64,000 nucleotides of DNA from an uncultured bacterium (GTDB lineage: Bacteria; Chloroflexota; UBA5177; JANWHV01). The notes below the pieces were generated by a model. That model saw only the letters and a list, made by a program, of their open reading frames with translations. It made no database searches and was not told where the DNA came from. The position numbers and the translations under genes are program-made. Shown one piece after another: positions 4,348 to 63,326 of the stretch. The stretch spans positions 1,120,001 through 1,184,000 of the forward strand of contig CAVSOU010000010.1 in assembly GCA_963729625.1 (NCBI GenBank), read 5' to 3'. How positions within the stretch are numbered: the first letter of the stretch is position 1; each line of letters begins with the position of its first letter.

Positions 4348-5625
4348 ATGACACTCACGTCTCGCGCGCGCGTTGAGCTGGCGCTGCAGCATCAGGAATC
4401 GGATCGCGTCCCTCTTGACCTCGGAAGCAATACCGAAACCGGGATGCACGTGTCTTCCGTGTACAGGCTGCGGCAGGCTCTTCGACTTGACCCACCGGGC
4501 ACGCCCGTCAGAGTAGTCCAGCCGTACCTGATGCTCGGCGAGATCGGTCATGACCTGGTCGACGTGCTGGGCGTCGACGTCGTCGGCCTGGGCTTGCCGA
4601 CCACGTCGGTCGGCTTCAAGAATGAAGGGTGGAAGCCCTGGACCACGTTTGACGGCACGCCGGTGTTGGTTCCGGCAGGCTTCAACACGGAGCCGGCCCC
4701 AAACGGCGACATACTGATGTATCCGTGCGGCGACAGGTCCGTGCCGGCCTGCGCGCGGATGCCCAAAGGTGGTTTCTATTTCGATGCCATTAGCCGACAG
4801 GCGCCTATCGACGACGACAAGCTGAACGTGGACGACAACCTTGAAGAGTTCGGCGAAATCAGCGACGACGATCTCTCTCACCTGCAACGGGAGAGCGCGC
4901 GATTGGCGGCGACCGGCAAGGCAATCATGGCAAACTTCGGCGGCACGTCGTTTGGGGATATCGGGACGGTGCCAGGGCTCAAGCTGAGACATCCAAAAGG
5001 CGTACGCGATGTCGAGGAATGGTACATCAGCCTTAACTCGCGACGGGACTACATCTACAACGTCTTCGAACGGCAGCGCGACATCGCGCTGAAGAATCTC
5101 GAGAAGATTCACCATGTTGTGGGCGATAGTGTTACTGCCGTTCGCGTGACGGCAGCGGACTTTGGGGCGCAGCAGGGTCCCTTCATCGGGCCAAAGACGT
5201 ACAGAGCTCTCTTCAAGCCGTTCCACGTGCGAGTCAACGACTGGATTCACGCCAACACATCCTGGAAGTGCGTCATTCACTCATGCGGATCAATCTGGCG
5301 ACTGCTTGACGACATCGTGGATGCTGGCTTCGATGCGTTGAATCCGGTGCAGACTTCCGCTGCAGAGATGGACCCGGCGATGCTAAAGCGGCGCTATGGT
5401 GACCGGCTCACCTTTTGGGGCGGAGGAATCGACACGCAGCACGTTCTTCCGTTCGGCACGCCGGACGAGATTCGCGAGATGGTTCGAGATCGCATGCGGA
5501 TTTTTGCTCCCGGAGGCGGCTTTGTATTCAACACCATACACAACGTGCAAGCAGGCATACCTGCGGCCAATCTGCTGGCGCTCTACCAGGCAGTGGAAGC
5601 GTATCGGTCATACCCGGTTGACTAG
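4348..5625 (+). CDS. URO-D/MtaA-CmuA family protein (#1)
   Basis: N-terminal SRARVELALQHQESDRVPLD, DFGAQQGPFI, HSCG, LNPVQTSA, TFWGGGIDTQ..LPFGTP, GGGFVFNTIHNVQ. Confidence 0.9.
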   Translation: MTLTSRARVELALQHQESDRVPLDLGSNTETGMHVSSVYRLRQALRLDPPGTPVRVVQPYLMLGEIGHDLVDVLGVDVVGLGLPTTSVGFKNEGWKPWTTFDGTPVLVPAGFNTEPAPNGDILMYPCGDRSVPACARMPKGGFYFDAISRQAPIDDDKLNVDDNLEEFGEISDDDLSHLQRESARLAATGKAIMANFGGTSFGDIGTVPGLKLRHPKGVRDVEEWYISLNSRRDYIYNVFERQRDIALKNLEKIHHVVGDSVTAVRVTAADFGAQQGPFIGPKTYRALFKPFHVRVNDWIHANTSWKCVIHSCGSIWRLLDDIVDAGFDALNPVQTSAAEMDPAMLKRRYGDRLTFWGGGIDTQHVLPFGTPDEIREMVRDRMRIFAPGGGFVFNTIHNVQAGIPAANLLALYQAVEAYRSYPVD

Positions 5626-5685
5626 CGCGCCGGATGGAAATGTAGTCGAACTACGTCAAGGACTGACCGGCCTTAGCCGTTGCAA

Positions 5686-6930
5686 CTAAAGTTCGGACAC
5701 GACGGTTGTGGCGTCAGGGCGTCGTCGCACGTCTGGCAGCAGGGCCGTGCCCAACCCCGGCCCGGTCGGTGCGAGTATGTGACCGCCCTCCACGATTATG
5801 GGCTCGGTCACCATCTCGGGGTACGTGACATGCAGATAGGCCCGCACCGTCTCCTGATAGACTGCATTCGTCGCATTGATTGCCAGGTGGATGCCCGCCA
5901 TCATGGTGAAGGGACCGGTGCAATCGTGGAAGGCGACAGGGCGTCGATATGCTTCCGCCATCGTGGCAATCTTCTTGCTTTCGGTGATACCGCCCGCCCA
6001 GGTCGGATCAATCATGACAATGTCGACCGCTTGTTGCTCGAATAGCGCCTTGAACTCGTAGCGCGTCGTCAAGAACTCGCTGGCCAGGATAGGGGTGGAG
6101 GTGCTCCGCCGCAGCTCCGCGAGAGAGGAGATGTCGTCAGCACGCATCAGGTCTTCGAGCCATGCCGGCTGGAACTCTTCCACGGCGCGTGCGATGTGCT
6201 TCGCCGCCGGAAGCGACCAGAGACCATGCCCTTCTAGCATGATGTCCATCTTGTTGCCTACCGCGGCGCGGATTTTGCGAAACGGCTCCAGCCCGCGCTC
6301 GAGATCGCCCTCGTCGATGCGCTGGCCGCCAAGGGTGCGCAGCGCCGGGTCGAAGGCGCCGCGAAAGTCGCGCCACTTGTCCCAGGAACCTGGCGCGTGC
6401 ACGCCGGGATCGAAGGGCCAGATTTTCATCCCCGTAATGCCCTCTGCCAACAGGTCGAGCGCGAGCTCGTCGGCCCGCGTCATGAAGGCAATCAGGTCTT
6501 CGTAGCGGCCTGCACTTTCCTTCAGCGTGCCGCCGAGCGTGGACCGTCCATAGGCCGGGCCGCCACAGGTGTTGTAGGTCTTGATGCGATCGCGGGCCGC
6601 GCCCCCGAGCAACTGCCACACCGGCATGCCGGTGGCCTGACCGAATATGTCCCACAACGCTACGTCGAGCGCGGACAGCCCGCGGATCTCCGCGCCCTTA
6701 CCGACAATATGCGTAATGATCTCGTAGAGCCGGCGCCAATGCAGTTCGATCGCCAGGGGGTCGTGGCCCAGCAGCAGCGGCGCCGCAAACCTGTGGATAT
6801 ATCCACGCACGGCGTCCGGCATGTAGAAGGTGTCGGAATAGCCGACGAGCCCCTCGTCGGTGTGCACGGCGATGAAGAGGATATGCGGGTAGTCGGCCAG
6901 ATGGATCGTCTCGATCTTGGTCAGCTTCAT
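5686..6930 (-). CDS. Mandelate racemase/muconate lactonizing (enolase superfamily) enzyme, probable acid-sugar dehydratase
   Basis: SALDVALWDI.G...G.PVWQLLGG, MKIWPFD, E-E-E metal ligands (MLEGHG, WLED, ASE), HDCTGP. Confidence 0.9.
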   Translation of the reverse strand: MKLTKIETIHLADYPHILFIAVHTDEGLVGYSDTFYMPDAVRGYIHRFAAPLLLGHDPLAIELHWRRLYEIITHIVGKGAEIRGLSALDVALWDIFGQATGMPVWQLLGGAARDRIKTYNTCGGPAYGRSTLGGTLKESAGRYEDLIAFMTRADELALDLLAEGITGMKIWPFDPGVHAPGSWDKWRDFRGAFDPALRTLGGQRIDEGDLERGLEPFRKIRAAVGNKMDIMLEGHGLWSLPAAKHIARAVEEFQPAWLEDLMRADDISSLAELRRSTSTPILASEFLTTRYEFKALFEQQAVDIVMIDPTWAGGITESKKIATMAEAYRRPVAFHDCTGPFTMMAGIHLAINATNAVYQETVRAYLHVTYPEMVTEPIIVEGGHILAPTGPGLGTALLPDVRRRPDATTVVSEL

Positions 6931-13043: not shown

Positions 13044-13788
<745 letters not shown>

Positions 13789-18298: not shown

Positions 18299-19591
18299 TC
18301 AGTGATCGAAAAGGTTTCCGTCGTCATCAAACCGTGGAGGCGCGAGCGGGCTGTCGACCCTCAGCTGCCCATTGGCATGCACGTCGTCCAGCAAGGCCTC
18401 CGACACCCAGAAACTCTCGAGATGGAGCGTATCCTCCAGGCGCAGCAGGCGTTTCTCCCGGTCGACGACGTTGCAGGTCTGCAACGCCGCAGCGAGCGCC
18501 AGGCGGTCTGACGGCAGCACCATAGGCATGGCCACGGGCCGCACCACGGTTGACGTCAGGGCATTCGCGTACATGGCAGCAAGCGACATCTTTCGCGCAG
18601 CATGTATTGTAGTAAAGTCCGCGGTGCCGAGGCCGCACGCGTTTCCGTGCGTGGCCTCAGTAAGATCGAGCACGACCTGCTTGGTCACCGAAGGTCCGCC
18701 GCGCGCATATGGCGTAGGATAGCATCCGGTGATGTTGGGGTCGGCTCCGTCCCCGCTGATGTCCTTACCAATGCGATCGATCACAAGCACGTCGAGTTGA
18801 TCAAATGGGATGTGGGCCATCGCGGCGCGTGCTTCATCGAGTAATGGCGGCTCTGCCTCGAGGATACGGTTAGCCGGCACGAGTTCCACCCTGAACGGCT
18901 GGTCATAGGCGTTCTCGAGCACCGCAAGGGCAAACCTGAAGGGCGCCTTGGCCAGTGCAACGGCCGCGAGTGCCGGTACATGCCGGTGCATCTCGCCGAA
19001 TCCCTCCGCATGGCAAGCCGAGGCGCCCTCCTGCTTGCCAAAGCCGATGGCGATCATTTTGGCAAGTCCACTCTCATAAGGCCCGCGGAAGGACGTGTGC
19101 GGCTTGACTCGCGCCACAAAGACGATACCATCCGCTGCCGCTGCCAGACGATCGAGTCTCACCGGCGTGCCGTCTGGCGTGATGCCAACCTGCACCGTCT
19201 CCATCTGAGCGCGGATGGGCGCGCCGACGCGATCTTCCGTTACGCCCAAACTGTGCAGCATCTCACGCTGTCCTGCCGCCGTTGCCCCGGCATGACTTCC
19301 CATGGCTGGGACTATATAAGGATCGGCGCCGAGATCACGAAGGCTCCGCACGAGCGCGGCGACAAGCTCGGGCAAGCGCGCGATGCCTCGACTACCGACC
19401 CCGATGGCAATACGCTGTCCGGGAGCGACCATCGAGCGCGCGGCGCGCACCTGAGCACAGACCAGCGCATCGACGTCGCCCAGTGCCGGAGGCGTCACCA
19501 TGTCATAGTGCACCCGCGCCATGAGCGGCATCGGCACGGCGCCGAGCAGCTCGTGGAGCATCTGGTCCGGCGTTTCAATCTCAAGCTTCAT
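18299..19591 (-). CDS. Lactate racemase (LarA) domain / DUF2088-like protein
   Basis: IAIGVGSRGI, IVPAMGSHAGAT, RVKPHTSF.G.YESGLAKMIAIGFGK, GKDISGDG.D.NI.G. Confidence 0.8.
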   Translation of the reverse strand: MKLEIETPDQMLHELLGAVPMPLMARVHYDMVTPPALGDVDALVCAQVRAARSMVAPGQRIAIGVGSRGIARLPELVAALVRSLRDLGADPYIVPAMGSHAGATAAGQREMLHSLGVTEDRVGAPIRAQMETVQVGITPDGTPVRLDRLAAAADGIVFVARVKPHTSFRGPYESGLAKMIAIGFGKQEGASACHAEGFGEMHRHVPALAAVALAKAPFRFALAVLENAYDQPFRVELVPANRILEAEPPLLDEARAAMAHIPFDQLDVLVIDRIGKDISGDGADPNITGCYPTPYARGGPSVTKQVVLDLTEATHGNACGLGTADFTTIHAARKMSLAAMYANALTSTVVRPVAMPMVLPSDRLALAAALQTCNVVDREKRLLRLEDTLHLESFWVSEALLDDVHANGQLRVDSPLAPPRFDDDGNLFDH

Positions 19592-29734: not shown

Positions 29735-30882
29735 TCACTCGCACCGGAGAGGATAGCGCCCAGCGGTGTTGGCTTCGTCGAGCATAGCGTGCACGTTCTC
29801 CACCGGGACGTCCGGCTGGATGCAGTGCACGGCTGCCAGAATGTAGCCGCCACCCTGTCCCAGGTCGCAGATTCGTCGGCGCACCTCGCGGCGCACGTCC
29901 TCAGGCGTGCCGAAAGGAAGGACGGTTTGCGTGTCAATGGCGCCGCAGAAGGAGAGCTTGTCGCCAAACTGCCGTTTCAGGCGGGCGGTGTCGCCCATTT
30001 GGCGCGCCGATACTTGCACCGGGTTGAGCAGATCCACGCCGATGTCGATGAAGTCGCCGATCAATGGGAACACATTGCCGTCGGAATGGTAGAAGATCTT
30101 GGCGTCCGTCTTCTGCTTGATGGCAGCGATCAGGCGGGCATGATGGGGCTTGATCAGCGCGCGGTACAGGCTCGGAGAAATCAGCGGCCCATGCTGGCTG
30201 GCCTGGTCGTCGGCCATGACCAGCACGTCAACGTACTCGCCCCACTTCGTCCAAGGAGTGCCTCAACGCCGGCAAGCATCAGGTCCGTGACCAATCCAAG
30301 CAGCGCGCGAGCGAACTCGAGGTTCTCGACAAGATCCACGAGCCATGTGTCGAGGCCGCGCAAACCCCAGATCTGCTCGATGGGATTCACGCCGCTTAGC
30401 GCTACCACCGCGAAGCCCTGCCGGCGCACGGCGTCTGCTTCCGCGGCCAGGCCTGCGAAACGACTGGCGTGGGCAAGGTCGGGCCAGGGGTACGGCGCAA
30501 GATCGCTCAGCGTGGCGCGGCGTAATGGACAATCGGCGATCTCGTAGTAGAGCGTCCCCGGCTTCATCCGCCATGTCGTGCCCCATTCGTCCACCAATGT
30601 GTGTTGATCGATCTCCTGGCGCAGCGTGGAGGGCGCAGGGCCCGGCAGGAGTGGTCTGCCGTCGACCCCGTAGCGGAGCATGACTTCTTCATCCAATCGG
30701 GCGTACTGCATGGTCCTGGAGAGCAGCCTGGGCGCGCTCCTGACGCCAAGATAGTCCGCGAAGCGCGCGTAGCCGGGGACCAGCATCGTGGTGGCGCCAG
30801 TCGTGCCAAAGAAGATGGGCACGCGATCCGGCTCTTCATGATTCAGTGCACACAGCACTCGCTCTCGCGGTGTCATGGCCAT
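29735..30882 (-). pseudogene. URO-D/MtaA family protein (#6), frameshifted near 30245
   Basis: The N-half (MTPRERVLCALNHEEPDRVP...DEWG) and C-half (DDQASQHGPLISP, HSDG, LNPVQ, LAAVHCIQ) lie in different frames. Confidence 0.85.
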
Positions 30883-31102
30883 AGCGTCCTCCTCCATACG
30901 GCGCGAGGGAGGGAAACGTCCACCGTGCCAGTGCCACACCCATCAACACTGATGCCTCGTTGATGGCGATCGGGATAGTCGTCCTGGCGGTTCGCCCAGT
31001 ACGTCTGCCAGGTCACCTGTCCTGGCGCGAACCGCATCGGGTTCCTCCCCTGGCGGAACGCGATCGGCAGCTGAAACGGCCATCGATCGAACAGCATAAC
31101 CG

Positions 31103-33008: not shown

Positions 33009-33078
33009 CACCGTTCCCCTGCTGCCTGAGCACCGGCGGCGTGCCGGCAAATAGAGGGCCGACGCTGGATCAACTCCG

Positions 33079-35608: not shown

Positions 35609-35641
35609 GGTCGGCGACGGAGCGGAAAGGATCTTGCCGGC

Positions 35642-36640: not shown

Positions 36641-36660
36641 ATGACGGTGGGGGTCCGATA

Positions 36661-37638: not shown

Positions 37639-37827
37639 TGCCTCGATCGTCCGATTGCGCAGATGCGTGTAGCTCTGGCCGAAACGGGCGCCGGCGCATG
37701 GTGCCATGATGGACGACGCGTGACACGCGTGAACACTCATGCCCATCGATGCAGTCGCGGCTACAAAGTGGCTCGTGTCAGACGTGGACGGATGCGCGCT
37801 ATTGTTGCTCTCGTTTGCCGAAGACTG

Positions 37828-40786: not shown

Positions 40787-41803
40787 TCATGCGGCCGGCT
40801 GGTTCTGCATCATGTTGACCATGGCGACGATGTTCTCCGCGGGCACGTCGCCAGGTATATCGTGAGTAGGAGCGGCAATATAACCGCCGCCGAGGGCCAT
40901 GGTGCGCATCGTCTCGCGCGTGATGGATCGGACTTCCTCAGGCGAACACCATGGAAGGACCCTCTGCGTGCTGATCCCGCCCCAGAACGTCAAATCTTGC
41001 CCGTACTGCCGTTTGACCTGGTGAATGTCGTAGATCTCGGGCTGAAATGTCTGGTACACGTCAAGCCCAATTTCTATCAGTTCGGGGAACAGCTGATGAA
41101 TGTCGCCACAAGAGTGCTGGGAGACAAACCTGCCTGCCCGCTTGACCCGCTCATACATGCGCGCCATCCGCGGCTTGATGAAGGTGCGCCACAGGCGCGG
41201 ACCCATGATGAGGCCACGCTGCTGACCCCAGTCATCGCCAAAATGGAAGCCGTCAATAGGGTACTCGAGGGCAATGTCGACGATCCGGAGATCGTGCTCG
41301 CAGATTGCGTCCAGCAACTCGTGCACAAAGTGCGACTCGGTGAGCATCTCTATAAGGAGATTCTCCATGCCTCGTAGCGTCCAGGCTCGCTCAAACATCG
41401 AGAAGCCAATGGCGCCGATCAGACAACGGTCGCCAGCCTGAGCCACAGCGGTCGCATATTCGTGCCGGATCCGCGCCTCGTCGAGCAACGGAAATCGATA
41501 CCCAGTCAGCGATGGCGTCTGCAATACCAGGCCCTCGATAGCGCCGATATCTTTGTCTGCGCCGTTGCGGTTCCAGACAACGCCGAAGTGGTCCTGCCAG
41601 TAGCCGGCGCGGTGGGCCAGCTCTTGAAGGTAGCCGTCGTAATAGACGATCTCAAGATGATTACCTATCCGCTCGACGTATCCGGAATCGCCTGTAAAGC
41701 GCAGGAGCCGGTCGCGAGCCTGCTGCGTGAGGCCAACGTTGTAGGGAACGGTATCCGTCTCCTGATGTCGAATGGCCTGAAGAACTCTGTCACGTCTGGT
41801 CAA
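40787..41803 (-). CDS. URO-D/MtaA family protein (#7)
   Basis: DHFGVVW, FERAWTLRGMENLL, DDWGQQ, HSCG, FWGGISTQ, APTHD; GAGGAGG before the TTG at 41803. Confidence 0.9.
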   Translation of the reverse strand: MTRRDRVLQAIRHQETDTVPYNVGLTQQARDRLLRFTGDSGYVERIGNHLEIVYYDGYLQELAHRAGYWQDHFGVVWNRNGADKDIGAIEGLVLQTPSLTGYRFPLLDEARIRHEYATAVAQAGDRCLIGAIGFSMFERAWTLRGMENLLIEMLTESHFVHELLDAICEHDLRIVDIALEYPIDGFHFGDDWGQQRGLIMGPRLWRTFIKPRMARMYERVKRAGRFVSQHSCGDIHQLFPELIEIGLDVYQTFQPEIYDIHQVKRQYGQDLTFWGGISTQRVLPWCSPEEVRSITRETMRTMALGGGYIAAPTHDIPGDVPAENIVAMVNMMQNQPAA

Positions 41804-42085
41804 CGTACGCCTCCTCGATGGTCCCTGTCGCGTCCAGGCTGCCCCCGGCATCCAACACGCCGCCACTCACCCATCAGGCACTAGCTATCGTGCGTTGCTC
41901 GTTCGTATAAGGAACCTGGGCAGCGCCAGAGTTGCTACCGCTTCGAGAAGTGTAGCACGACGATCGCATTGAACTTTCGTCACCCCACAGCCGCAAGAGC
42001 GATCGCAGCGAGCTCGTTGATGAGGCCAGCGGCCTTCATGCTACGATGGTCATCGGTGAATACACGAAGACGGATTGGAGCAAGG

Positions 42086-43223: not shown

Positions 43224-44429
43224 ATGATGAGCAATGAAGTTGTAAGCCCGGATTCCCTCGGCTGGAGCTCACGTTCGGTGTGGGCCGGTGAGGAAGAGTA
43301 CCTGTTGCAGGGTGCCACGCAAGTGCCGGTCGTGCACAGCGTGTCATTCGGTTATCGCGATGTCGACGAATGGCTGGCCGTCGCTCGGGGCGAGAGACCG
43401 GGCCATATTTATGGCCGCAACACCAATCCGACCGTGCAGGTGCTTGAGGAAAAGATCAGGCAGTTGGAAGGCGCCGAAGCAGCCACGAGCTTTGCCACGG
43501 GCATGGCCGCAATCAGTGGCACGCTGTTCGCCCTGCTCAGGCCAGGCGATCGTGTCGTTTCGGTAAAGGACACCTACGGAGGAACCAACAAGCTGTTCTT
43601 GGAGTTCCTTCCGCGTGCCGGCATACCCGTGCAGCTTTGCGATACCACGGATTTTGCATCAATTGAAGCTGAGATCCTCACCGGTTGTTCGTTGCTGTAT
43701 CTCGAGAGCCCGACAAATCCGACGTTGAAGGTCGTCGACCTGGAGCGATTGGCTGCCGCCGCCCATCGTGCCGGAGCAATCGTTGTGGTCGACAACACAT
43801 TTGCGACGCCGATCAACCAGAATCCTCTGGCGTTGGGTGCGGACCTGGTCCTGCATAGCGCGACCAAATTCCTTGGCGGACATGCCGATGCGCTGGGCGG
43901 CCTCGTATGCGGCTCCCGGGCACTCGTCGGCCAGGTCTATCACTATCGTGAGATCAACGGCGCTACCCTCGATCCTATGGCCGCCTATCTGTTGCTTCGC
44001 GGCATGAAGACGCTGAGCCTGCGCGTTCGTCAGCAGAACGAGAGTGCGATGCGTATCGCTCAGTTCCTGCAAACCCAACCCGGTGTGGATCGTGTCTTCT
44101 ATCCCGGGCTGCCTGACCACGAAGGGTATGCAGTGGCGCGGCGTCAGATGCGAGGCTTCGGCGGTGTGCTGAGCTTCATGCTCGCGGGAGGATTCGACGC
44201 AGTCCGCGCGTTTCTGCCACAGCTGCGCCTGGCGCATCTTGCCGCAAACCTTGGCGCGGTAGAAACAGTGGCCGGACCGCCCGCCACCACAAGCCATGTC
44301 GAATCGTCGCCCGAGGAACGCGCACGTATGGGGATACCAGAGGGATTGATTCGCTACTCGGTCGGAATAGAGGACGTGGACGACCTGATTCGCGACCTCC
44401 GACGGGCGTTTGACGCAATTCTAGCCTGA
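43224..44429 (+). CDS. Cystathionine gamma-synthase/lyase family PLP enzyme
   Basis: YGRNTNPT, ESPTNP, DNTFATP, HSATKFLGGH (PLP lysine), RYSVGIED. Confidence 0.95.
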   Translation: MMSNEVVSPDSLGWSSRSVWAGEEEYLLQGATQVPVVHSVSFGYRDVDEWLAVARGERPGHIYGRNTNPTVQVLEEKIRQLEGAEAATSFATGMAAISGTLFALLRPGDRVVSVKDTYGGTNKLFLEFLPRAGIPVQLCDTTDFASIEAEILTGCSLLYLESPTNPTLKVVDLERLAAAAHRAGAIVVVDNTFATPINQNPLALGADLVLHSATKFLGGHADALGGLVCGSRALVGQVYHYREINGATLDPMAAYLLLRGMKTLSLRVRQQNESAMRIAQFLQTQPGVDRVFYPGLPDHEGYAVARRQMRGFGGVLSFMLAGGFDAVRAFLPQLRLAHLAANLGAVETVAGPPATTSHVESSPEERARMGIPEGLIRYSVGIEDVDDLIRDLRRAFDAILA

Positions 44430-44642: not shown

Positions 44643-47006
44643 TCAGAACGATTGGTGTTCGGTCCGGGCAATGATCTCGTCCTGCAGAGCCTTGCCAAGA
44701 TCGCAGAAGTAGTCGCTGTAACCTGCCACGCGCACGATCAGGTCGCGATGCCCTTCAGGATGCCGCTGCGCATCGAGCAGACTTGCTGCATCGACCACGT
44801 TGAACTGTATGTGATGCCCGTCGAGCTTGAAATATGTGCGGATCAGTCCGACCAGGCCGTCCATACCGGCCTCGTCCGCCAGCAGCTGCGGAGTGAACTT
44901 CTGGTTCAGCAGTGTGCCGCCAGTCCGGACATGATCCATCTTCGCCGCCGACTGGACTGCCGACGTAGGGCCACGGCGATCTGCTCCCTGCACGGGTGAT
45001 ATCCCCTCGGAGAGCGGTTCACCTGCGCGACGTCCGTCAGGTGTCGCGCCAATCACCGAGCCAAAATAGACATGCACCGTGGTCGGCAGCAAGTTGATAC
45101 GATATCTGCCGCCCTTGGTGTTCGGTCGGCCGTCGATGGCATCGAAGTAGATGTCGAAGACCTGCCTCATAACGCTGTCGGCGTAGTCGTCGTCGTTGCC
45201 GTACCGTGGTGTGAGGTTAAGCAGCAACTGGCGCGATCGCTCTTGTCCGGCGAAGTTGGCGTTCAGTGTCGCAACCAGCTGGTCCATCGTCAGCGCGTGG
45301 CGATCGAACACGTGATACTTGATCGCAGTGAGGGAATCGGTGATCGTGCCAAGCCCCACGCCCTGGATATAGCTGGTGTTATACCGTGCGCCGCCGTCGT
45401 GATAATCACGGCCGGTCGCAATACAGTCGTCGGTGAGCAGTGACAGGAACGGCGCGGGCATATGGAGAGCGTACAGCCGTTCGATCACACAGTTGCCGCG
45501 AATCTTGACATCGACGAAGTGACGGAGCTGCCGCTCGTAGGCTGACATCACGTCATCGAACGACGTGAACTGCCCGGGATCGCCGGTGGATACGCCAATT
45601 CGCGCGCCCGTCAGCGGATCGACGCCGTCGTGCAGGGCCAGCTCCAGCATTTTCGGCATGTTGAAATAGCCGGTCAGGTTGTAGTTCTCTTTGCCGAAGG
45701 CGCCCACCTCGACGCAGCCACTCGACCCGCCCGCCCGGGCGTCGTGGACGGATTTGCCTTGCCGCACCAGCTCCTGCACGATCAGGTCGGCATTGAAGAC
45801 GGAGGGCTGGCCGAAACCGGTCCGGATGATCTCGCCGGCACGCCTGAGGAAGCGATCGGGGCACTTCTTGCTGACCTGAATCGACGCACTGGGTTGCAGC
45901 AGGCGCATCGATTCAATCACGTCGAGCAACAGGTACGTCACGTCGTTCACTGCATTCGACCCGTCGGATTTGACCCCGCCGAGATTGATCTGCGCGAAAT
46001 CAGTATAGGTGCCGCTCTCCTCCGCGGTGATGCCCACCTTGGGCGGCGCCGGCTGATTGTTGAACTTGATCCAAAAGCACTGCAGCAACTCCTCCGCGGC
46101 CTCTCGGGTAAGCGATCCGTCGGCAATGCCACTGGCGTAGAAGGGGTACAGGTGCTGATCGAGGTGCCCGGGGGAAAAGGCATCCCAGGTGTTAAGCTCG
46201 GTGGTGACACCCAAATGCACGAACCAATAATACTGCAGAGCTTCCCAGAAGTCGCGCGGCGCATGTGCCGGTACATGCAAACAGACCGTCGCAATGTGTT
46301 CCAGCTCACGTTTGCGTGCCGGATCGCTCTCTTGCAGTGCCTGCGCGCTCGCCATCTCGGCGTGGCGTTCCGCAAAACGGATCAGGGCATCGGTACAGAT
46401 TGACATCGCCTGCAGTTCCTGTTGCCTCGCATAGGCCTGCGGGTCGCCAAGGTAATCCAGTCGGCGCAAGCCGTCGTGGATATCGTGCTTGAAGTCCAGC
46501 ATACCTCTGCCGTAGATTTTGCCGTCCAGCACAGTGTGGCCCGGCGCGCGCTGCTCCATGAACTCGGTGAAGACGCCGGCTTGGTAGGCCGCATTCCATT
46601 CGTCCGTCATCTCTCGAAAGATCAGGTCTCGCATCGATTGGTGCTGCCAGAAAGGCTGGATCATCTCGGCATGCACGTCCCGTGCCTGCCCACTGACCGC
46701 GAACGGGATCTTGTCGCGCGTGTCCAGGATTTCGAGGTCCTGCAGACTGTGGCAGCAGAGCTCAGGATAGGTCGGCGTTGCCTTGGGCGCCGGGCCCTTC
46801 TCGCCGACGATAAGCTCGTCGGCGCCGATATAGACGGTCTTGTGCTCCATCAGATACTGAAACGCCAACGCGCGGCGCATCGGCGCGGAGAGCAGGCCTG
46901 TCTGCCGCCGATAGGCGTCGGTCAGTAGCACGGCGCGTTCGGTGGAAATACATGGCGTGGCATCCAAACTCTGGCGGCGCAGGCGGATCACGCGATCACC
47001 GAGCAT
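44643..47006 (-). CDS. hypD: Glycyl radical enzyme, trans-4-hydroxy-L-proline dehydratase
   Basis: TEFMEQRAPGHTV, ELNTWDAF, QPAPPKVG.T..ES.TYTDF, SGCVE, LTGY, LPTT and RVAGYS match the HypD active-site residues as I recall them. Confidence 0.9.
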   Translation of the reverse strand: MLGDRVIRLRRQSLDATPCISTERAVLLTDAYRRQTGLLSAPMRRALAFQYLMEHKTVYIGADELIVGEKGPAPKATPTYPELCCHSLQDLEILDTRDKIPFAVSGQARDVHAEMIQPFWQHQSMRDLIFREMTDEWNAAYQAGVFTEFMEQRAPGHTVLDGKIYGRGMLDFKHDIHDGLRRLDYLGDPQAYARQQELQAMSICTDALIRFAERHAEMASAQALQESDPARKRELEHIATVCLHVPAHAPRDFWEALQYYWFVHLGVTTELNTWDAFSPGHLDQHLYPFYASGIADGSLTREAAEELLQCFWIKFNNQPAPPKVGITAEESGTYTDFAQINLGGVKSDGSNAVNDVTYLLLDVIESMRLLQPSASIQVSKKCPDRFLRRAGEIIRTGFGQPSVFNADLIVQELVRQGKSVHDARAGGSSGCVEVGAFGKENYNLTGYFNMPKMLELALHDGVDPLTGARIGVSTGDPGQFTSFDDVMSAYERQLRHFVDVKIRGNCVIERLYALHMPAPFLSLLTDDCIATGRDYHDGGARYNTSYIQGVGLGTITDSLTAIKYHVFDRHALTMDQLVATLNANFAGQERSRQLLLNLTPRYGNDDDYADSVMRQVFDIYFDAIDGRPNTKGGRYRINLLPTTVHVYFGSVIGATPDGRRAGEPLSEGISPVQGADRRGPTSAVQSAAKMDHVRTGGTLLNQKFTPQLLADEAGMDGLVGLIRTYFKLDGHHIQFNVVDAASLLDAQRHPEGHRDLIVRVAGYSDYFCDLGKALQDEIIARTEHQSF

Positions 47007-47914
47007 CCTTGTCCTCCAACGGTCACATTCAGTCCGAACTGGCTCAACAGGAGCGCGACACGTTCCACACGCTCAAGTGAGGGTGGACGCATGCCGGAAA
47101 GTCGATATGGTTTCCCCAGGTTACTGTACTTGTCCGTCGCGACGGCGTGATACGGCAGAATATCGACCCCGTCGACCTGTGCCAGCGACGCGGCAAACGC
47201 GCCGATCTGGCCGATCGTCTCATCGTCGTCATTGATGCCGGGGATGAGCGGCACACGGAGCATGATACCGTGCCGGTGTTGCGATAATCGCCGTAGGTTT
47301 CTTAGGATTGGCGCGTTGGGCACGCCCGTGTACTCGCGATGTGTGGCATTGTCTATCAGCTTGAGATCGAATAAGAACAGGTCGACGAACTCGCGAATGA
47401 GGTTGAAACTCTCCCATGCCGCGAACCCGCTCGTGTCTACAACGGTATGAATATCTTTCGCCTTGCACGCTTGAAGCAGCGCGAGCAGAAAATCGCGCTG
47501 CAATAAGGGCTCGCCACCGGAAAAGGTTGCTCCACCACCGGACTGATCGTAAAAGGCGATGTCGCTTTCCACCTCGGTCATCACCTGCGCGGTGGTCATC
47601 TCCTTGCCAATTCGTTCGCGCGCCTGGGCGTAGCACTCGCCGGCACACGTGCCGCAGTGCTTGCACGCCGCCCGATCGGTGACCGGCGCACCTTCCGCCC
47701 ACCGAATAGCGTGCTGGGGACATATCTCGACGCAGGCTCCGCAGCGAATGCAGCGGTTTCCATGAAGGATCATTTCCGGGGCACTTGCCTGGCTTTCAGG
47801 GTTGTGACACCACCAGCAATTGAGCGGGCATCCCTTGAAGAACACTGTCGTCCGGATGCCGGGACCATCATGAATCGAGTATTTCTTGATATCGAAAACC
47901 AGGCCGCTCTCCAC
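46988..47914 (-). CDS. Glycyl-radical enzyme activating enzyme (radical SAM with ferredoxin insert)
   Basis: HDGPGIRT.VFFKGCPLNCWWCHNPE, two CxxCxxCxxxC motifs, SGGEP; GGAGG before the GTG at 47914. Confidence 0.95.
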   Translation of the reverse strand: MESGLVFDIKKYSIHDGPGIRTTVFFKGCPLNCWWCHNPESQASAPEMILHGNRCIRCGACVEICPQHAIRWAEGAPVTDRAACKHCGTCAGECYAQARERIGKEMTTAQVMTEVESDIAFYDQSGGGATFSGGEPLLQRDFLLALLQACKAKDIHTVVDTSGFAAWESFNLIREFVDLFLFDLKLIDNATHREYTGVPNAPILRNLRRLSQHRHGIMLRVPLIPGINDDDETIGQIGAFAASLAQVDGVDILPYHAVATDKYSNLGKPYRLSGMRPPSLERVERVALLLSQFGLNVTVGGQGCSVIA

Positions 47915-47936
47915 GGTGCCTCCACTCTGCAGTAGC

Positions 47937-47966
47937 AGCGTATGCGTGTACAAACGAGACTGTCAA
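47937..47966 (-). promoter_or_regulatory. Putative sigma70 promoter of the activase-hypD operon
   Basis: TTGACA-18-TACGCT on the minus strand. Confidence 0.5.
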
Positions 47967-57806: not shown

Positions 57807-58664
57807 CTACGCGCCTATCGCCGAGGCCACCCGCGCTGTCGCGCGCGCGGTGGACTGCAGGATCCGCTCCTCGCTCCCCTCGGACTTGTCGAACTCGTCC
57901 ACGATCGTGCCGTGGCTCAACACCAGGCAGCGATCACAGATGCCGACAAGCTCGGGTAGCTCCGAGGAGACCACCACTATGGCCACGCCCTGATCGGCCA
58001 GGTCGTGGATCAAGCGGTAGATCTCGCGTTTGGTGCCGACATCCACGCCCTTGGTCGGCTCGTCCATGAGCAGAATGGCAGGCGTGCGCACGAGCACGCG
58101 GGCGAGAAGCGCCTTCTGCTGGTTGCCACCGCTGAGATGCGCGACATCGGACCGTATGGACGGCGCCTTTATCGCCAGCGTCTGCATGCTCTTCCGGGCA
58201 ACCAGATTCTCTTCCCGGCGATCGATGACACTGTATCGGGCGAACAGCGGCAGGCTACCCATGGTGATGTTCGGACCAAGTAACAAGTTGAACAACAGGC
58301 CGGCGTTCTTCCGGTCCTCCGTCAGCATGGCGATGCCGGCCTTGAGCGCGTCTGCCGGACGCCGGATCGCGACTTCTTGCCCATGCACCCGGACACGCCC
58401 TTCATGCGGAATTCGGCCGAAGATCGCGCTCAGTACCTCGGTCCGACCCGCCCCAACCAACCCAGCGAGGCCAACAACTTCGCCGCGACGCAGGCTGAAG
58501 CTTGCGTCTGAAATGATGTCCGTGCCGCCGCCGGCACGAGGCACGCGCAGGTGTTCCACGCGCAGAACTTCATCGGTGCCGATCTCGCCTTTGCGCTCCG
58601 GATACATCGTGTCGATACGGCGTCCAACCATTGCCGCAACAATAGCGTTTTCGTCGAAGTCGGC
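57807..58664 (-). pseudogene. Sugar ABC transporter ATPase (RbsA/XylG-like), C-terminal half only
   Basis: MVGR linker, GLVGAGRTE, EDRK, LSGGNQQK, DEPTKGVDVG, SSELPEL; the first ATPase domain is absent. Confidence 0.85.
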
Positions 58665-59494
58665 ACACCGAACAGGCTCACGCCGCCCACGACCACACCC
58701 GCGATGCAGTTCAGCTCCCAGCCCACGCCAATAGAGGTTGTGGCGCTCGCCAGGCTCGCCATCACCAGCATGCCGGCTACCGCCGAGAGGACGCCGGTGT
58801 TGACGAAGCAGATCAGTTTGTATCGGTTCGTATTGATGCCGACGAGGCGTGCTACTTCCTTGTTGCCACCTGTCGCGTAGAGATTCCGTCCGATGGTGGT
58901 ACGCCGCAGCATCAGGTCGCCACCGACAAGCAGAACGAGCAGAATGAAGAACGACCAGCCGATCCCCCACACGAAGGAAGCCGCGCCGAAGTTTCCCACC
59001 GAATCTGGAATCGGATAGATTGGGTAGCCGTTTGTGACCACTTGCGTCAGACCCGCGGCCACGAACAGCATGCCGAGCGTGGCGATGAAAGCGGGGATGC
59101 CGAAGCGTACGACAACCGTACCGTTGACAAAGCCCAGTGCCGCTCCGGTAGCAACCCCTCCCAACAAGGCCAGAGGTACCGGCACATGGCCGCTGGTCAT
59201 CAACCACCCAGACACCACGGCGCAGAGACCGGAAACCGAGCCTACCGACAGGTCGAACTCACCGGCGACGAGGAGAATCGTCTGGCCAACGCCGATGATC
59301 CCTATATATGAGACGGCGATGAGCATCGCGCGAATATTCATCTCCGACAAGAAGCCCTGATTCAGGATGTCGAAGACGGCGATCAACAGCACGAGCGCGA
59401 GAACCACGCCTGCTTCGCCGCCGGCCAGCAATGCCAGAGCGGCCGGGCCAAGGCGCCGGCCATCTTTGCGGCCGGCCAATGAACCTATTTGCAC
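58665..59494 (-). pseudogene. Sugar ABC transporter permease (RbsC-like), 3'-truncated
   Basis: GEFDLSVG, IPAFIATLG, GRNLYATGGN..ARL.GI, ELNCIAGVVVGGVSLFG, then homology is lost abruptly. Confidence 0.85.
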
Positions 59495-59773
59495 TATCAA
59501 CTCCCGCTGTTCAGCACGTACGAGCGGCACCGCGCCCGACACCGATTACCTGGGTCCGGTCCAACTCGGGAGGTCGGTTCACCACCATGCGCTGCGCACA
59601 GATCGGACCACTCATCAACCTTGCACACCTATGTTTGGCTAGAAGCACACTAACACCCGGACCCGCGGTGAGCAATGCGGAAAAGTTTGGGGCTTCTCCT
59701 CATCGGGTAGTGTGTCGGCCCATCGTGCCGGGTGTGGCTCACGTCGATTGCGACTGCTTGCATGGCAGCACAC

Positions 59774-60571: not shown

Positions 60572-60897
60572 CTTTCTACCTACCTTCGGTCCCCCTTGGG
60601 CTTGGTCTTATCATACGCAGCGATGCCCGGGGAGTCTGGATCGCCTGAAGCTCGGCAACTGTGTTTAGGTCGGAACTCGATTGCGCTGCGACGAGCCTAC
60701 ACTTCTCGGAGGTCCGTGCCAATGCGGAAAGGTTTGCAATTCCTCCTTTCCGGGTGGACCAGGCATCAGCTGGACACACCACGCAGGAAGTCTCCCGCAC
60801 TTTTGCGCATACCGGCGCGTTGACGCTGGTGATATGCTGCTCGCGATCTGTGAACAGCAGCGCACGGCAAGTGTTCGCAACCCAAAGGAGGCCACTG

Positions 60898-62127
60898 ATG
60901 GATTCACGAAGCCGTGTAGTAACGGCGCTCAACCACCAAGAACCCGACAGGGTTCCGATCGACCTGGCCGGGCATCGGTCGTCTGGAATCGCCGCCATCG
61001 CCTATGCAAAGCTTCGCGAGTACCTCGGCCTGCCAAAGAAAGCAATCCGCGTATTCGACATTATTCAGCAGCTGGCCGTGATCGACGACGATGTCCGTGA
61101 GCGTTTCGGCGTCGACACTATCGAGCTTGGCCGGGGCTTTGCGCTGGACCGGGACCATTGGGTCGATTGGGTGTTGCCGGATGGCACTCCCTGCCAGGTG
61201 TTGGCGTGGGCCCTGCCCGAGCGCGCACAAGACCGATGGATCTTGCGTTCGCGGACCGGGAGGCCTATCGGAGAGATGCCGGAGGGGTCACTGTACTTCG
61301 AGGCCTCGTACTATCCCTTTGCGTCCGGCGAGCCTGACTTCGAATCACTGGAAGCCGTCATGCCGGAATGCATGTGGGCGTTGCCCACTCCGCCCGGACC
61401 TGAGGTCGAGGGTCCAGGGGGCGACGAGCGACTTGCGGCAGGCGCTCGCCGGTTGCGCTTGAGCTCGAATCGGGCGCTAATTGGTCTGTTCCGAGGCAAT
61501 CTCATGGAGTGGGGTTGGCGTCTGTACCGGATCGACAATTTCCTCATGTTGTTGGCCACCGAACCTGCCAAAGTGCATGACCTCCTCGAGCGGCTCACCG
61601 AGCTGCATATGGCTGCGCTCGACCAATACCTCAAGGTGGTCGGACCATACATAGACGTGATAGCGTTTGGCGACGACCTTGGCATGCAGACGGGTCCCCA
61701 GATTTCGCCGCGCATGTATCGGGAGTTCTTCAAGCCCCGGCATGCACGACTGTGGAAGCGTGTTAAGGAGCTGGCAGACGTCAAAGTCATGCTGCACTGC
61801 TGTGGCGGCATTAGGCCCCTCCTGCCAGATCTCATCGACGCAGGACTTGACGCCGTTAATCCCGTCCAGATTAGCTGCCACGGGATGGACGCGGCTGGAC
61901 TGAAGAGGGACTTCGGACGCGACCTCTCGTTATGGGGTGGCGGCTGTGATACGCAGTGGCTGCTCGCGCACGGCACGCCGTCAGAGATTCGAGATCACGT
62001 CAGGAGACAGGTCGACATCCTGCAGCCGGGCGGGGGATTCGTCTTCCAGCAGGTGCACAACATCCAGGCAGATGTGCCGCCGCAGAACATCGTCGCGATG
62101 CTCGACGCCGCGCGCGGCATCGCCTAG
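60898..62127 (+). CDS. URO-D/MtaA family protein (#8)
   Basis: MDSRSRVVTALNHQEPDRVPID, DDLGMQ, HCCG, NPVQ, WGGGCDTQ, FQQVHNIQ; AGGAGG RBS. Confidence 0.92.
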   Translation: MDSRSRVVTALNHQEPDRVPIDLAGHRSSGIAAIAYAKLREYLGLPKKAIRVFDIIQQLAVIDDDVRERFGVDTIELGRGFALDRDHWVDWVLPDGTPCQVLAWALPERAQDRWILRSRTGRPIGEMPEGSLYFEASYYPFASGEPDFESLEAVMPECMWALPTPPGPEVEGPGGDERLAAGARRLRLSSNRALIGLFRGNLMEWGWRLYRIDNFLMLLATEPAKVHDLLERLTELHMAALDQYLKVVGPYIDVIAFGDDLGMQTGPQISPRMYREFFKPRHARLWKRVKELADVKVMLHCCGGIRPLLPDLIDAGLDAVNPVQISCHGMDAAGLKRDFGRDLSLWGGGCDTQWLLAHGTPSEIRDHVRRQVDILQPGGGFVFQQVHNIQADVPPQNIVAMLDAARGIA

Positions 62128-62135
62128 GTGGAAGA

Positions 62136-63326
62136 ATGCAGGAAGAGCTTACCGGCCGGGAGCGGCTTCTTCGAACATTCAGACACGAAAAGGTCGATCG
62201 CGTCCCGCTTTCGCCGTTTCTGTACTACAACTCGACCTACGAGATGTTCAAGTACAAACCCGCAATCGATAGCTTCTTCGATCCTCCGGATTTCGACCCG
62301 ATTGTAAAGTTCGTCGAGTATTGCGGCTACTTCGGGTTCGACGTTCTGCACTCGCTCGGCAGCGTGTGGGATTTTCATACGGCGTATAACTCCACTAACG
62401 ACCGCAGCTTCGTCCGCAGTGCCGACAACTGGGATGTCACGATTGCTGAGGAGCGGCGAGGAGACGACGAAAAGCGTCGGACGGTGACCATTCGCACTCC
62501 GGCTGGACACCTGCGTCTGGCGGAAGAGTACAAGCGCACGTCGACGTACCTGATCGTGTCGGCCCCGGTGGAGTATCCCGTCAAGACGAGGCAAGACTTC
62601 GAGATTATTCGGCGCTACGCTCCGCCAGGCGACGAGATGGATTGCAGCCTGGTGCGGCGAGCCAGATACGCGGTTGGCGACCGGGGCTTGGTGTCCACAT
62701 GCATGCACGGCGTCTTTAACCAGGTGGCGCAGTTCCGCAAGCTCGAAGACGTGATGGTTGATCCGCTTGAGGACGAGGCTCTCTCCAGGGACATGATGGA
62801 GTTCGCGCTGGATCGGATTATCAAGCGCGCGACGAAGATCATGGCGAACGGAGGCGAAGTGATCGAGTGCGCGGCCAACCTGGCGGGTAGCGGGGTGGGA
62901 CCGCGCTTCTATCGGAAGAATGTGATGCCGTATGAGAACCGGCTCATGAAGGCCCTCCATGACCTGGGCGCCATGGTCATCTTCCACAACTGCGGCGATG
63001 CGTCCAGGATTATGCACCTGTACAACGAGATGGATATGGATGTCTGGGGTTACCTCACGCCTGCACCGTTCGGAGACGTGGAGTTGGATGACGCGGTGCG
63101 CGTGATGCGGCCCGACCTCATACTGCGGGGCAATATCGACCAGGTTGAGTTCATGATGAGGGCGACGCCGCGCGAGGTGAGAGAACGTGTCCGGCAGGTA
63201 CTGGCGACGGTGAAGTCGCGCGGCAACTTCATCCTGTCTACTACCGACTTCTTCTTTGACGGTACCCCGTATGAGAACATAATGGCTTTTGCCAACGCGG
63301 GTCGGGAGTTCGGACAATACGGATGA
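62136..63326 (+). CDS. URO-D/MtaA family protein (#9)
   Basis: TGRERLLRTF.HEKVDRVP, YPVK, FHNCG, GNID, FILSTTD. Confidence 0.88.
   Translation: MQEELTGRERLLRTFRHEKVDRVPLSPFLYYNSTYEMFKYKPAIDSFFDPPDFDPIVKFVEYCGYFGFDVLHSLGSVWDFHTAYNSTNDRSFVRSADNWDVTIAEERRGDDEKRRTVTIRTPAGHLRLAEEYKRTSTYLIVSAPVEYPVKTRQDFEIIRRYAPPGDEMDCSLVRRARYAVGDRGLVSTCMHGVFNQVAQFRKLEDVMVDPLEDEALSRDMMEFALDRIIKRATKIMANGGEVIECAANLAGSGVGPRFYRKNVMPYENRLMKALHDLGAMVIFHNCGDASRIMHLYNEMDMDVWGYLTPAPFGDVELDDAVRVMRPDLILRGNIDQVEFMMRATPREVRERVRQVLATVKSRGNFILSTTDFFFDGTPYENIMAFANAGREFGQYG

Follow-up and report, generated by a model that had tools for sequence, protein, structure and literature searches.

Why does a single 64-kb stretch of a bacterial genome hold nine genes of the uroporphyrinogen decarboxylase (UroD) fold, set among genes for the breakdown of sugar acids? 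The stretch in question, called the window below, covers C10:1,120,001-1,184,000 in the genome of an uncultured member of the Chloroflexota (G000; assembly of 5.41 Mb in 21 contigs, 63% G+C, 87% complete, 5% contamination). The initial annotation of the window proposed that the nine proteins are either O-demethylase modules for methylated sugars or cyclitols that share one corrinoid carrier encoded elsewhere, or a corrinoid-independent family of sugar-modifying metalloenzymes. We favour, with about as much confidence as doubt, the reading that they are substrate-specific methyltransferases I (MT I) of a multicomponent corrinoid system whose methyl donors are carbohydrates. Corrinoid dependence is probable for two families represented among them, the 424-aa and 409-aa families (aa, amino acids), and the balance tips slightly toward it for all nine proteins.

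All nine positions match the Pfam family PF01208 (URO-D) at 44.9 to 88.0 bits, above its cut-off of 23.9 bits, so the nine genes named in the initial annotation stand; a fragment that it counted in addition (30181-30939) is the other half of the gene at 29735 and not a separate copy, so that eight genes of the window are intact and one is frameshifted. The genome as a whole has 44 PF01208 matches, or ~42 genes allowing for fragments and a contig-end duplicate, which split into more than 25 subfamilies. Nine of the 44 fall within 64 kb of 5.41 Mb, where chance would place ~0.5, and clustering in the window thus exceeds chance; more copies lie just outside it, 12 kb upstream and 0.4 kb downstream. 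Pairwise identity among the nine proteins is 20 to 34%, with one exception (62% between those encoded at 4348 and 26253; genes are named by their first coordinate, Table 1), indicating that the nine genes are not recent duplicates.

To which family do these proteins belong? All nine score best on the NCBIfam models for MtaA, CmuA or MtbA, but only at 17 to 84 bits against cut-offs of 235 to 600 (TIGR01463, 17.1 to 81.8 bits, cut-off 235.4; NF004889, 24.5 to 83.5 bits, cut-off 244). The best NCBIfam match of the 11970 protein, for example, is the MtaA-type model at 83.5 bits against 244. On the HemE model TIGR01464, the highest score is 28.6 bits against a cut-off of 302.95, and five of the nine have no HemE match at an E value of ≤0.01. 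The motif RQAGR, which we take to be the N-terminal substrate-binding motif of HemE, and its one-off variants are found in none of the 10 URO-D open reading frames (ORFs) of the window, and Pfam detected no haem-synthesis, B12-binding, RACo or pterin-binding family on 51 further window ORFs, in agreement with what the initial annotation had said of motif, haem genes and corrinoid genes. Identity as HemE was rejected on the low NCBIfam score, the missing motif and the lack of haem genes nearby, and membership of the MtaA/CmuA family was rejected since all nine proteins fall under the NCBIfam cut-offs. The proteins share fold and Pfam family with HemE, whereas the true HemE proteins of the phylum reach ~400 bits on PF01208, against 45 to 88 bits here. 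Hence, the nine proteins belong to the UroD superfamily, outside HemE and MtaA/CmuA, and do not cluster with HemE or MtbA; such clustering had been named beforehand as an outcome that would speak against the proposal. Six of the nine carry an H-x-C motif, aligned with VLHICG of MtaA, and three carry H-x-D; the H-x-C pair and the distal cysteine of APGCG are presumably the zinc ligands of MtaA. As a separate observation, G000 itself has no HemE-grade URO-D protein: its best match has 222 bits, whereas most other members of the phylum, the same-genus G127 among them, have a match of ~400 bits. The missing match, like the converse lack of RACE in G127 and the same-class genomes (see below), could be due to incompleteness, gene transfer or a binning issue.

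A corrinoid-dependent enzyme calls for partners. Searches with this genome's own corrinoid proteins and RACE activase gave no match among the 277 window ORFs of at least 80 aa. The statement that there is no corrinoid partner therefore holds within the window and fails genome-wide: B12-binding and RACE genes and a methyl-tetrahydrofolate methyltransferase-like gene, the three kinds for which a whole-genome search had been proposed, are all found outside it. Two MtaC-like corrinoid proteins of 210 aa, each with B12-binding_2 and B12-binding domains, are encoded at C10:939,051-939,683 and C11:598,697-599,329, and the DxHxxG motif is invariant in them. The single RACE activase (RACo; C11:591,317-593,173) has Fer2, linker, middle and C-terminal domains and scores 271 bits (cut-off 27); its gene adjoins a DUF1638 gene and lies 5.5 kb from the carrier gene that abuts a BtuFCD-like importer. 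Several candidates are available for the methyltransferase II (MT II) step. The gene of a MeTr-like methyl-tetrahydrofolate:corrinoid methyltransferase (C8:534,809-535,846; PF00809, 71 bits, cut-off 25.5; NF005719, 207 bits, under the cut-off of 259) stands between MTHFR-like and formate-tetrahydrofolate ligase genes. MetH is also encoded, as is a stand-alone homocysteine S-methyltransferase of 290 aa (C10:439,590-440,462, 244.9 bits; locus L130, C10:436,092-440,462), just past a CUT2 sugar ABC transporter (Peripla_BP_4, permease and ATPase) with one small opposite-strand ORF between. Three MtaA-type proteins with the motif H-I-C-G followed by G-C score 132 to 172 bits, under the MtaA/CmuA cut-off. 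Divergent proteins of the UroD fold in large number, together with two carriers, a single activase and acceptor enzymes of both the pterin and the homocysteine type, resemble the multicomponent corrinoid systems of O-demethylating anaerobes and point to the MT I reading.

One of the two carriers ties this inventory to the window. On the same contig, 180 kb upstream of the window, a bridge locus (C10:939-951 kb) reads, in order, carrier, frameshifted 424-family gene, GntR, sugar ABC transporter, MR_MLE, SDR, a 445-aa URO-D-like gene and an MtaA-type gene. Its 424-family gene, next to the carrier, is the closest paralog of window gene 4348 (73% identical), and the carrier thus sits within the same kind of sugar-acid cluster as that of the window. 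The second carrier has its own surroundings, locus L007 (C11:590,000-602,500), which comprises a BtuF/C/D-like importer, the carrier, a protein distantly related to RuBisCO (type III model, 75 bits), a PfkB kinase, an AAA_33 kinase, a DUF2090 aldolase-like protein, a 409-aa ORF, RACE and DUF1638. The 409-aa ORF (L007:9244-10476, between DUF2090 and RACo) has no match to Pfam, NCBIfam or the URO-D hidden Markov model (HMM). L007 resembles a further sugar-phosphate pathway that is connected with a B12 carrier.

The 4348 protein and the C10 carrier also form a confident complex in structure prediction. Three runs gave ipSAE values of 0.84, 0.83 and 0.83, while the best of three controls reached 0.01; the pLDDT of the partner was 86 to 89, and contacts agreed by at least 95% between runs. 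In the benchmark, 116 of 157 solved complexes attained this ipSAE mark, as did 2 of 215 mismatched pairs. On the carrier side, the predicted interface consists of the DxHxxG loop (residues 97 to 103), residues 148 to 151 and 177 to 179 and part of the helical cap; on the enzyme side, it consists of barrel-mouth loops including the conserved D146, Q275, T363, Q364 and Q401. As modelled, this is the geometry expected for methyl transfer, and the prediction supports, rather than demonstrates, binding of the C10 carrier by the 4348 protein.

Is the link between URO-D-like genes and carriers conserved in other genomes? The 424-aa family comprises at least 8000 database clusters at an E value of ≤1e-10, the top 120 of which are 66 to 83% identical, and its members bear names such as "hypothetical protein" and "methyltransferase." We examined neighborhoods in 80 of 582 genome hits (1.21 Mb in all), using this genome's proteins as queries. 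These loci come from Chloroflexota, Acidobacteriota, Actinomycetota, Planctomycetota, Bacteroidales, Spirochaetota, Omnitrophota, Hydrogenedentota, Kiritimatiellia, Bacillota and Armatimonadota. A carrier gene lies within 10 kb in 23 of the 80 loci, mostly adjacent, and a RACE gene in 8; by chance, 1.21 Mb would hold ~0.5 carriers at the density of this genome and ~3 at a carrier-rich density (8 per 3 Mb). Pfam annotation of eight loci revealed an Acidobacteriota module with (Pterin_bind), S-methyl_trans, DUF1638, MtaA-types, RACo, carrier and 441-aa and 424-aa URO-D-like genes. The homocysteine S-methyltransferase of L130 has counterparts in these acidobacterial carrier modules. Compact strings recur elsewhere. 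In Brevefilum, a sugar-sensor kinase is followed by the 424-type gene, Peripla_BP_4, ABC, permease, carrier, a URO-D-like gene and an aldose-epimerase-like gene; a sugar ABC transporter, the 424-type gene, carrier, GntR and GH4 make up a locus of Anaerolineaceae; a Solibacteraceae locus has a RhaT-like transporter, two URO-D-like genes, carrier, S-methyl_trans, DUF1638 and an MtaA-type gene. In the 72 remaining loci, the ORFs that directly flank the 424-type gene (131 in all) include a carrier in 9 loci, another URO-D gene in 6 and carbohydrate genes in ~30.

Relatives of other window genes were also placed in their gene context. Among 80 metagenome loci of the 409-aa family (relatives 60 to 73% identical; 650 kb in all, with a median of 7 kb), 8 contain a carrier, which in 5 of them is the next gene downstream. 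In L027, 47 bp separate a 13892-type ortholog (50.7% identity, 371 aa aligned) from the gene of a corrinoid protein. More distant relatives of 40787, which in this genome match another paralog best, are found by carriers in G077 (33%, adjacent), G044 (39%, one gene off) and L085 (40%, 1080 bp). Orthologs of the 15117 type (46 to 48%) occur in G020 (two), G086 and G012, with one found between RraA, MR_MLE and UxuA genes, another beside PdxA-family genes and a third ~9 kb from RACE and a carrier. In G027, S-methyl_trans and RACo precede a 66% ortholog of the URO-D-like copy located 12 kb upstream of the window. Many paralogs go with few carriers outside G000 as well: G061 has 67 matches and 1 carrier, and G012 has 30 and 2.

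The link also appears at the level of whole genomes. Of 151 sampled genomes from the phylum (G000 among them), 18 have a 40787-type match (E ≤ 1e-30), and all 18 encode RACE, compared with 32 of the 133 others; G038 and G145, used in these tallies only, count here as having neither, and dropping both gives 32 of 131. RACE is likewise present in all 8 genomes with a 424-type match (E ≤ 1e-60) and in all 11 genomes with at least five PF01208 matches. Conversely, neither RACE nor a 40787-type match was found in the same-genus G127 (83% complete, 720 contigs) or in 14 same-class genomes, and PF01208 candidates number 5 in G127 and at most 5 in each of the same-class genomes, compared with 58 in G000. 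With RACE and the URO-D expansion lacking in its relatives of the same genus and class, the whole system looks lineage-specific in G000.

How far do these data carry the MT I reading? A number of observations weigh against it, and many of them are what one would expect if the proteins were corrinoid-independent UroD-fold enzymes acting on sugar acids, such as cofactor-free decarboxylases, epimerases or metal-dependent isomerases, with carrier linkage concerning some subfamilies only. UroD itself is cofactor-free, and a decarboxylase would fit steps of the window pathways. The structure of the 4348 protein, the only one of the nine folded (AF2 model, pLDDT 93.4), is as good a match to UroD (VIA Z 23 to 24.5, root mean square deviation 3.3 to 3.6 Å, 301 to 319 residues aligned) as to MtaA (4ay7/4ay8, Z 21.7 to 21.9); the top Foldseek match is MtaA (4ay7, E 5.5e-13), in a library that ends in April 2026 and lacks CdmB. 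With UroD and MtaA tied within ~3 Z, the predicted fold does not separate a decarboxylase from a methyltransferase. Three of the nine window copies have no motif cysteine, and the cysteine of APGCG in MtaA aligns with a glycine in the 4348 protein. Seven residues past this glycine lies a histidine, H398, which aligns with a conserved active-site-region histidine of UroD; it is invariant in the 424-aa family, as are H301, H311, D271 and Q275, and C313 is kept in at least 90% of the sequences. In single-sequence searches of solved structures, the 40787 protein had no match at an E value of ≤1, and the 4348 protein matched MtaA only (E 0.023); the 424-family profile gave marginal matches to UroD (E 0.011 to 0.03), MtaA (E 0.052) and CdmB (9rui; E 0.61, 11.9 bits). 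Sequence likeness to the characterized members compared, UroD, MtaA and CdmB, is thus marginal, and CdmB scores no better than the other two.

The neighborhood evidence has its counterweights too. Most ortholog loci are without a carrier (57 of 80 for the 424-aa family and 72 of 80 for the 409-aa family), and so is the window. No carrier-adjacent ortholog of 11970 was seen in the data examined, which showed sugar context only, and a search of the other 150 genomes in the phylum sample gave no relative of 62136 at an E value of ≤1e-30; the Atlas look-alikes of 62136 are unnamed "uroporphyrinogen decarboxylase family" clusters, mostly from Chloroflexota and Spirochaetota. The 18 positive genomes of the co-occurrence sample fall in 13 families and are related rather than independent, and the association with RACE could reflect a shared anaerobic lifestyle. 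Both the MeTr-like protein and the corrinoid proteins score under their NCBIfam cut-offs; the complex score, obtained with custom alignments, may draw on remembered solved complexes of B12 domains with TIM barrels; and the gene calls come from ORF and GC3 heuristics without a gene finder. What the data show directly is family, fold, gene inventory, gene neighborhoods and co-occurrence; binding, the direction of transfer, the metal site, enzyme activity and the substrates are predicted.

Even so, we consider corrinoid independence unlikely. The subfamilies with H-x-D are linked to corrinoid genes as well, the 13892 ortholog by its carrier and a C10_1107253 ortholog by the adjacent RACE; RACE accompanies these proteins in every sampled genome of all three comparisons, and the relatives of G000 that lack RACE also lack the 40787 type and have few PF01208 candidates; and the complex model passes its controls. 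The case for independence is strongest for 11970 and 62136, which have no carrier evidence. Of the two possibilities raised at the outset, the metalloenzyme family independent of corrinoids is accordingly disfavored, least so for these two genes, while MT I modules sharing a carrier encoded elsewhere gain from the genomic partners, the carrier-adjacent orthologs, the co-occurrence with RACE and the predicted complex, though no carrier-linked ortholog of 11970 or 62136 turned up in the data examined.

What would the methyl donors be? The sugar-acid genes of the window, assigned by Pfam, comprise FSA, a UxaE-like epimerase, three 2-hydroxyacid dehydrogenases, an MR_MLE dehydratase, an FAA-family hydrolase, three DHDPS-type aldolases, five SDRs, a Zn-ADH, a xylose-isomerase-like barrel, DhaK and DhaL, FGGY and PfkB kinases, an AKR, a GFO oxidoreductase, a 3-keto-disaccharide hydrolase, two GntR/FCD regulators, an ABC transporter, an aldose-epimerase-like gene and an AraC-type regulator with a periplasmic-binding domain. 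The sugar dehydrogenases, aldolases, kinases, epimerase and mutarotase-like gene of the initial annotation are all present in this list. We further examined 22 loci of this genome outside the window, 21 with a URO-D-type gene and L130 with the homocysteine S-methyltransferase. In 14 of the 22, there is a sugar transporter, a glycosidase (GH29, GH38) or a sugar kinase or dehydrogenase at most four genes away; 7 have none, and L010 is unclear. In other genomes, the carbohydrate genes immediately beside the 424-type gene include Sugar_tr, RhaT, SSF, CUT2 parts, GH2, GH95, GH120, malectin, FGGY, GalK, ROK, LacI, GntR-UTRA, GFO and altronate dehydratase. Sugar-gene context is also seen for orthologs of 11970, 15117, 40787 and 13892, and a CUT1 sugar ABC transporter is encoded two genes away from the G012 ortholog of 11970 (41 to 43%), which stands behind FAD_oxidored and Lactamase_B genes. 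Homologs thus do show the conserved carbohydrate linkage whose lack would have told against the proposal. The consistency of this context across phyla suggests that methylated sugars, sugar acids or cyclitols are the most likely donors.

The same proteins could be corrinoid-dependent MT I with other donors, such as methylated thiols, compounds similar to methanol, or methoxylated aromatics set free from lignin or plant glycosides, in which case the sugar genes would be neighbors for regulatory or ecological reasons. This view draws on what is reported for related systems: all characterized MT I of the UroD superfamily act on aryl methyl ethers or halomethanes (PMC13222342), MtaA-like clusters are tied to methyl-sulfur and methyl-selenide metabolism (PMC10418091), and mire Acidobacteriota express methanol and methoxy demethylation genes (PMC10805028). 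Locus L077 of Solirubrobacterales, in which MtaB, a carrier and RACE occur with two URO-D-like genes, couples the 424-aa family with MtaB, and the seven paralogs of this genome without sugar neighbors (L119, L120, L122, L123, L126, L127 and L129) fit as well. We nevertheless judge noncarbohydrate donors improbable. Sugar transporters, glycosidases and sugar kinases are consistently adjacent across at least eight phyla, the compact Brevefilum and Solibacteraceae strings leave little room for another substrate, and no aromatic-ring catabolic genes were seen beside the URO-D-like genes.

L077 raises a further point against MT I with carbohydrate donors, since the URO-D-like genes there, beside the methanol MT I MtaB, could act as MT II. 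Could the nine proteins likewise be of the MT II type and, like MtaA, MtbA and MtsA, transfer methyl groups from the methylated carrier onto an acceptor such as a small thiol? Their best sequence models are indeed MtaA, MtbA and CmuA, six of nine keep the H-x-C of a thiol-activating zinc site, and a cystathionine gamma-synthase family gene is present in the window (43224-44429). Yet forty-odd acceptors are harder to rationalize than forty-odd donors, the third zinc ligand of MtaA is missing, no other MT I family such as MtaB or MttB was seen by Pfam beside the window genes, and the genome already has three closer MtaA-types, the MeTr-like protein and the homocysteine methyltransferase for the MT II role. 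A transfer in this direction therefore seems quite improbable to us, and we infer that methyl groups more likely move the opposite way, loading the carrier.

If the nine proteins are MT I with carbohydrate donors, as we favor, a six-step route can be proposed. Flanking ABC and MFS transporters would import a methylated sugar, sugar acid or cyclitol, which the URO-D-like barrel would bind; the His-x-Cys/Asp pair and the downstream histidine (H311, C313 and H398 in the 4348 protein) would polarize the ether oxygen, possibly via zinc. One of the two shared MtaC-like carriers would then dock with its cobalamin face at the barrel mouth, as modeled, and Co(I) would take the methyl group. From there, methyl would go to tetrahydrofolate via the MeTr-like protein, or alternatively to homocysteine via the stand-alone S-methyltransferase or to a thiol via the three MtaA-type proteins, all of whose genes are present and whose roles are putative. 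The RACE activase, whose gene is present as well, would re-reduce Co(II), and the sugar, once demethylated, would pass to the dehydrogenases, dehydratases, aldolases and kinases whose genes stand beside each paralog. In such a scheme, ~40 MT I paralogs would share two carriers, as in O-demethylating anaerobes with many MT I paralogs. More tentatively, these families may be the earliest known members of a very large group of corrinoid-dependent O-demethylases that spans phyla and acts on methylated sugars, sugar acids or cyclitols. In this wider picture, which we hold with more doubt than confidence, dozens of MT I paralogs per genome would feed one or two carriers, and the methyl group would be kept as methyl-tetrahydrofolate or used to make methionine.

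Precedents for parts of this scheme exist. MT I enzymes of the UroD superfamily, with many paralogs, serve O-demethylating anaerobes (PMC13222342, PMC10418091); they include OdmB, VdmB, MtvB, MtoB and CdmB, of which CdmB, too, carries extensions that lie between its first barrel strands; ~20 CdmB paralogs are encoded by Acetobacterium dehalogenans (PMC13222342). The window proteins resemble these enzymes (CdmB, 9rui) in a TIM barrel of the UroD type that has an insertion past the first strands, and their genome supplies the putative partners of such systems, a separate corrinoid protein of ~210 aa, RACE and a pterin-binding MT II, with many paralogs for few carriers; the metal requirement varies among the known systems (PMC13222342). 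They differ in context, which is carbohydrate uptake and catabolism here and aromatic or halomethane metabolism there, and in hosts, which are Chloroflexota-like, Acidobacteriota, Actinomycetota, Planctomycetota and Bacteroidales here and acetogenic Bacillota there. An alkyl (sugar) methyl ether would also be chemically harder to cleave than the aryl ethers of known MT I, and activity on it is a prediction. The lists of MT I clades of unknown substrate in PMC13222342 may include the present families.

MtaA, MtbA and MtsA (4ay7; TIGR01463) provide the top Foldseek match of the 4348 protein and the best NCBIfam models for the window proteins, with which they share the H-x-C motif and an MtaC-like carrier, a putative one here, as partner. 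The window proteins have 60 to 100 extra residues, far lower scores and a glycine at the third zinc ligand cysteine, and coenzyme M metabolism is not expected in a bacterium. The MtaA-like proteins (Mlps) of type 1 mlp clusters described by Kountz and Balskus are bacterial, too, and occur with a corrinoid protein and RACE but with no adjacent tetrahydrofolate methyltransferase (PMC10418091). The three MtaA-types of this genome and those of the acidobacterial module may belong to the Mlps. The Mlps are defined by an identity of more than 25% to a characterized coenzyme M methyltransferase and concern methyl-sulfur and methyl-selenide compounds, whereas the window proteins are far more divergent (PMC10418091); the word "sugar" occurs nowhere in the main text of that paper.

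Methyl ethers block sugar catabolism, a problem that strict or facultative anaerobes would meet with sugars such as 4-O-methylglucuronate, methylated fucose, rhamnose or galactose, or pinitol. To our knowledge, P450 oxidation is the only enzymatic sugar demethylation described. Our literature search found no description of corrinoid-dependent sugar demethylation or of sugar-linked UroD paralogs, which is no proof of absence; the sugar demethylation that it did find is oxidative, by cytochrome P450 (PMC6292453, PMC10033563). The 6-O-methyl-D-galactose demethylase of marine Bacteroidota is a functional analogue only, in that it removes a sugar methyl ether for catabolism within glycan-utilization loci; it has an unrelated fold, needs O2 and releases formaldehyde, unlike the proposed system, which would be oxygen-free and keep the methyl group as methyl-tetrahydrofolate or methionine (PMC6292453, PMC10033563). 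Should the MT I reading be true, it would provide an oxygen-free counterpart of the P450 enzymes and concrete, clonable candidates for sugar demethylases, one subfamily of which comprises at least 8000 sequence clusters. It would explain the 30 to 67 "uroporphyrinogen decarboxylase" genes of some Chloroflexota-like and Acidobacteriota genomes, correcting a widespread misannotation, as well as how peat, sediment and gut anaerobes handle methyl-etherified glycans. Glycan degradation would be tied to cobamide demand and to the methyl-tetrahydrofolate and methionine pools, and a carbohydrate-derived methyl pool would be added to anaerobic C1 metabolism. Even with another substrate, dozens of orphan UroD paralogs relying on one or two distant carriers would be useful for annotation. 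As an aside, cytochrome P450 genes occur one or two genes from URO-D-like paralogs of this genome (L009:4620-5861, that is, C10:1,104,620-1,105,861, and L122:10105-11385), and it might be speculated that P450 and corrinoid routes of sugar demethylation coexist in it.

Table 1. The nine URO-D-like genes of the window (coordinates within the 64-kb stretch)
Gene	Strand	Description	PF01208 score
4348..5625	+	425 aa, 424-aa family, H-S-C motif	44.9 bits
11970..12962	-	330 aa, singleton subfamily, H-S-C motif	84.4 bits
13892..15034	-	380 aa, singleton subfamily, H-A-D motif (no Cys)	53.2 bits
15117..16298	-	393 aa, singleton subfamily, H-T-D motif	81.8 bits
26253..27569	-	438 aa, second 424-aa family member (62% to 4348), H-S-C motif	51.0 bits
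29735..30939	-	frameshifted URO-D-like gene: C-terminal ORF 29735-30226 (H-S-D), N-terminal ORF 30181-30939	
40787..41866	-	359 aa, loosely allied to 409-aa family, H-S-C motif	83.6 bits
60898..62127	+	409 aa, 409-aa family, H-C-C motif	88.0 bits, scored on longer ORF 60661-62127
62136..63326	+	396 aa, rare singleton subfamily, H-N-C motif	82.6 bits, scored on 61956-63326

The family of gene 60898 has three more copies in the genome (C10_719232, C8_5441 and C11_40437), 66 to 71% identical. In the frameshifted gene, the first ORF covers the C-terminal 163 aa only and has a PF01208 score of 74.8 bits, and the second is the N-terminal half, with 94.8 bits on an HMM built from this genome's own URO-D paralogs. 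The frame changes near 30250, which could be an assembly error or a real pseudogene, and public contigs give no cover of 30110-30364. Two further URO-D-like genes of this genome are frame-changed (C10:939,729-941,115 and C8:772,557-773,673), as are window genes for an SDR (13228-13788), a DHDPS-type aldolase (32033-33335) and an ABC ATPase/permease pair (57807-59542); such split or truncated genes could be assembly indel errors or real decay. In the Chloroflexota loci closest to 4348 (L011, L013, L014, L015, L017, L020 and L026), the 424-family gene is followed by a DUF5680 protein in five and preceded by an SdpI-family membrane protein in four; window gene 4348 is instead followed by the MR_MLE gene on the opposite strand.

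Other genes of the window deserve mention in their own right. An operon on the plus strand (34181-39411) encodes a 2-oxoacid-dehydrogenase-like complex (E2 with lipoyl domain, E1 alpha and E1 beta) and then an FGGY sugar kinase, and converges on the PfkB kinase gene and URO-D-like gene 40787. On the minus strand, 18299-19591 encodes a LarA-like protein of the nickel-pincer-cofactor-dependent isomerase group 22 (502.6 bits, cut-off 400), with an M24 (creatinase/prolidase-like) gene and an Ldh_2-family dehydrogenase gene as neighbors. Also on the minus strand, 44643-47953 encodes a glycyl radical enzyme that scores 1280 bits on the model of trans-4-hydroxy-L-proline dehydratase HypD (equivalog cut-off 1100), with a radical-SAM activase directly downstream, and this HypD-like gene marks anaerobic capability within the sugar-acid island.

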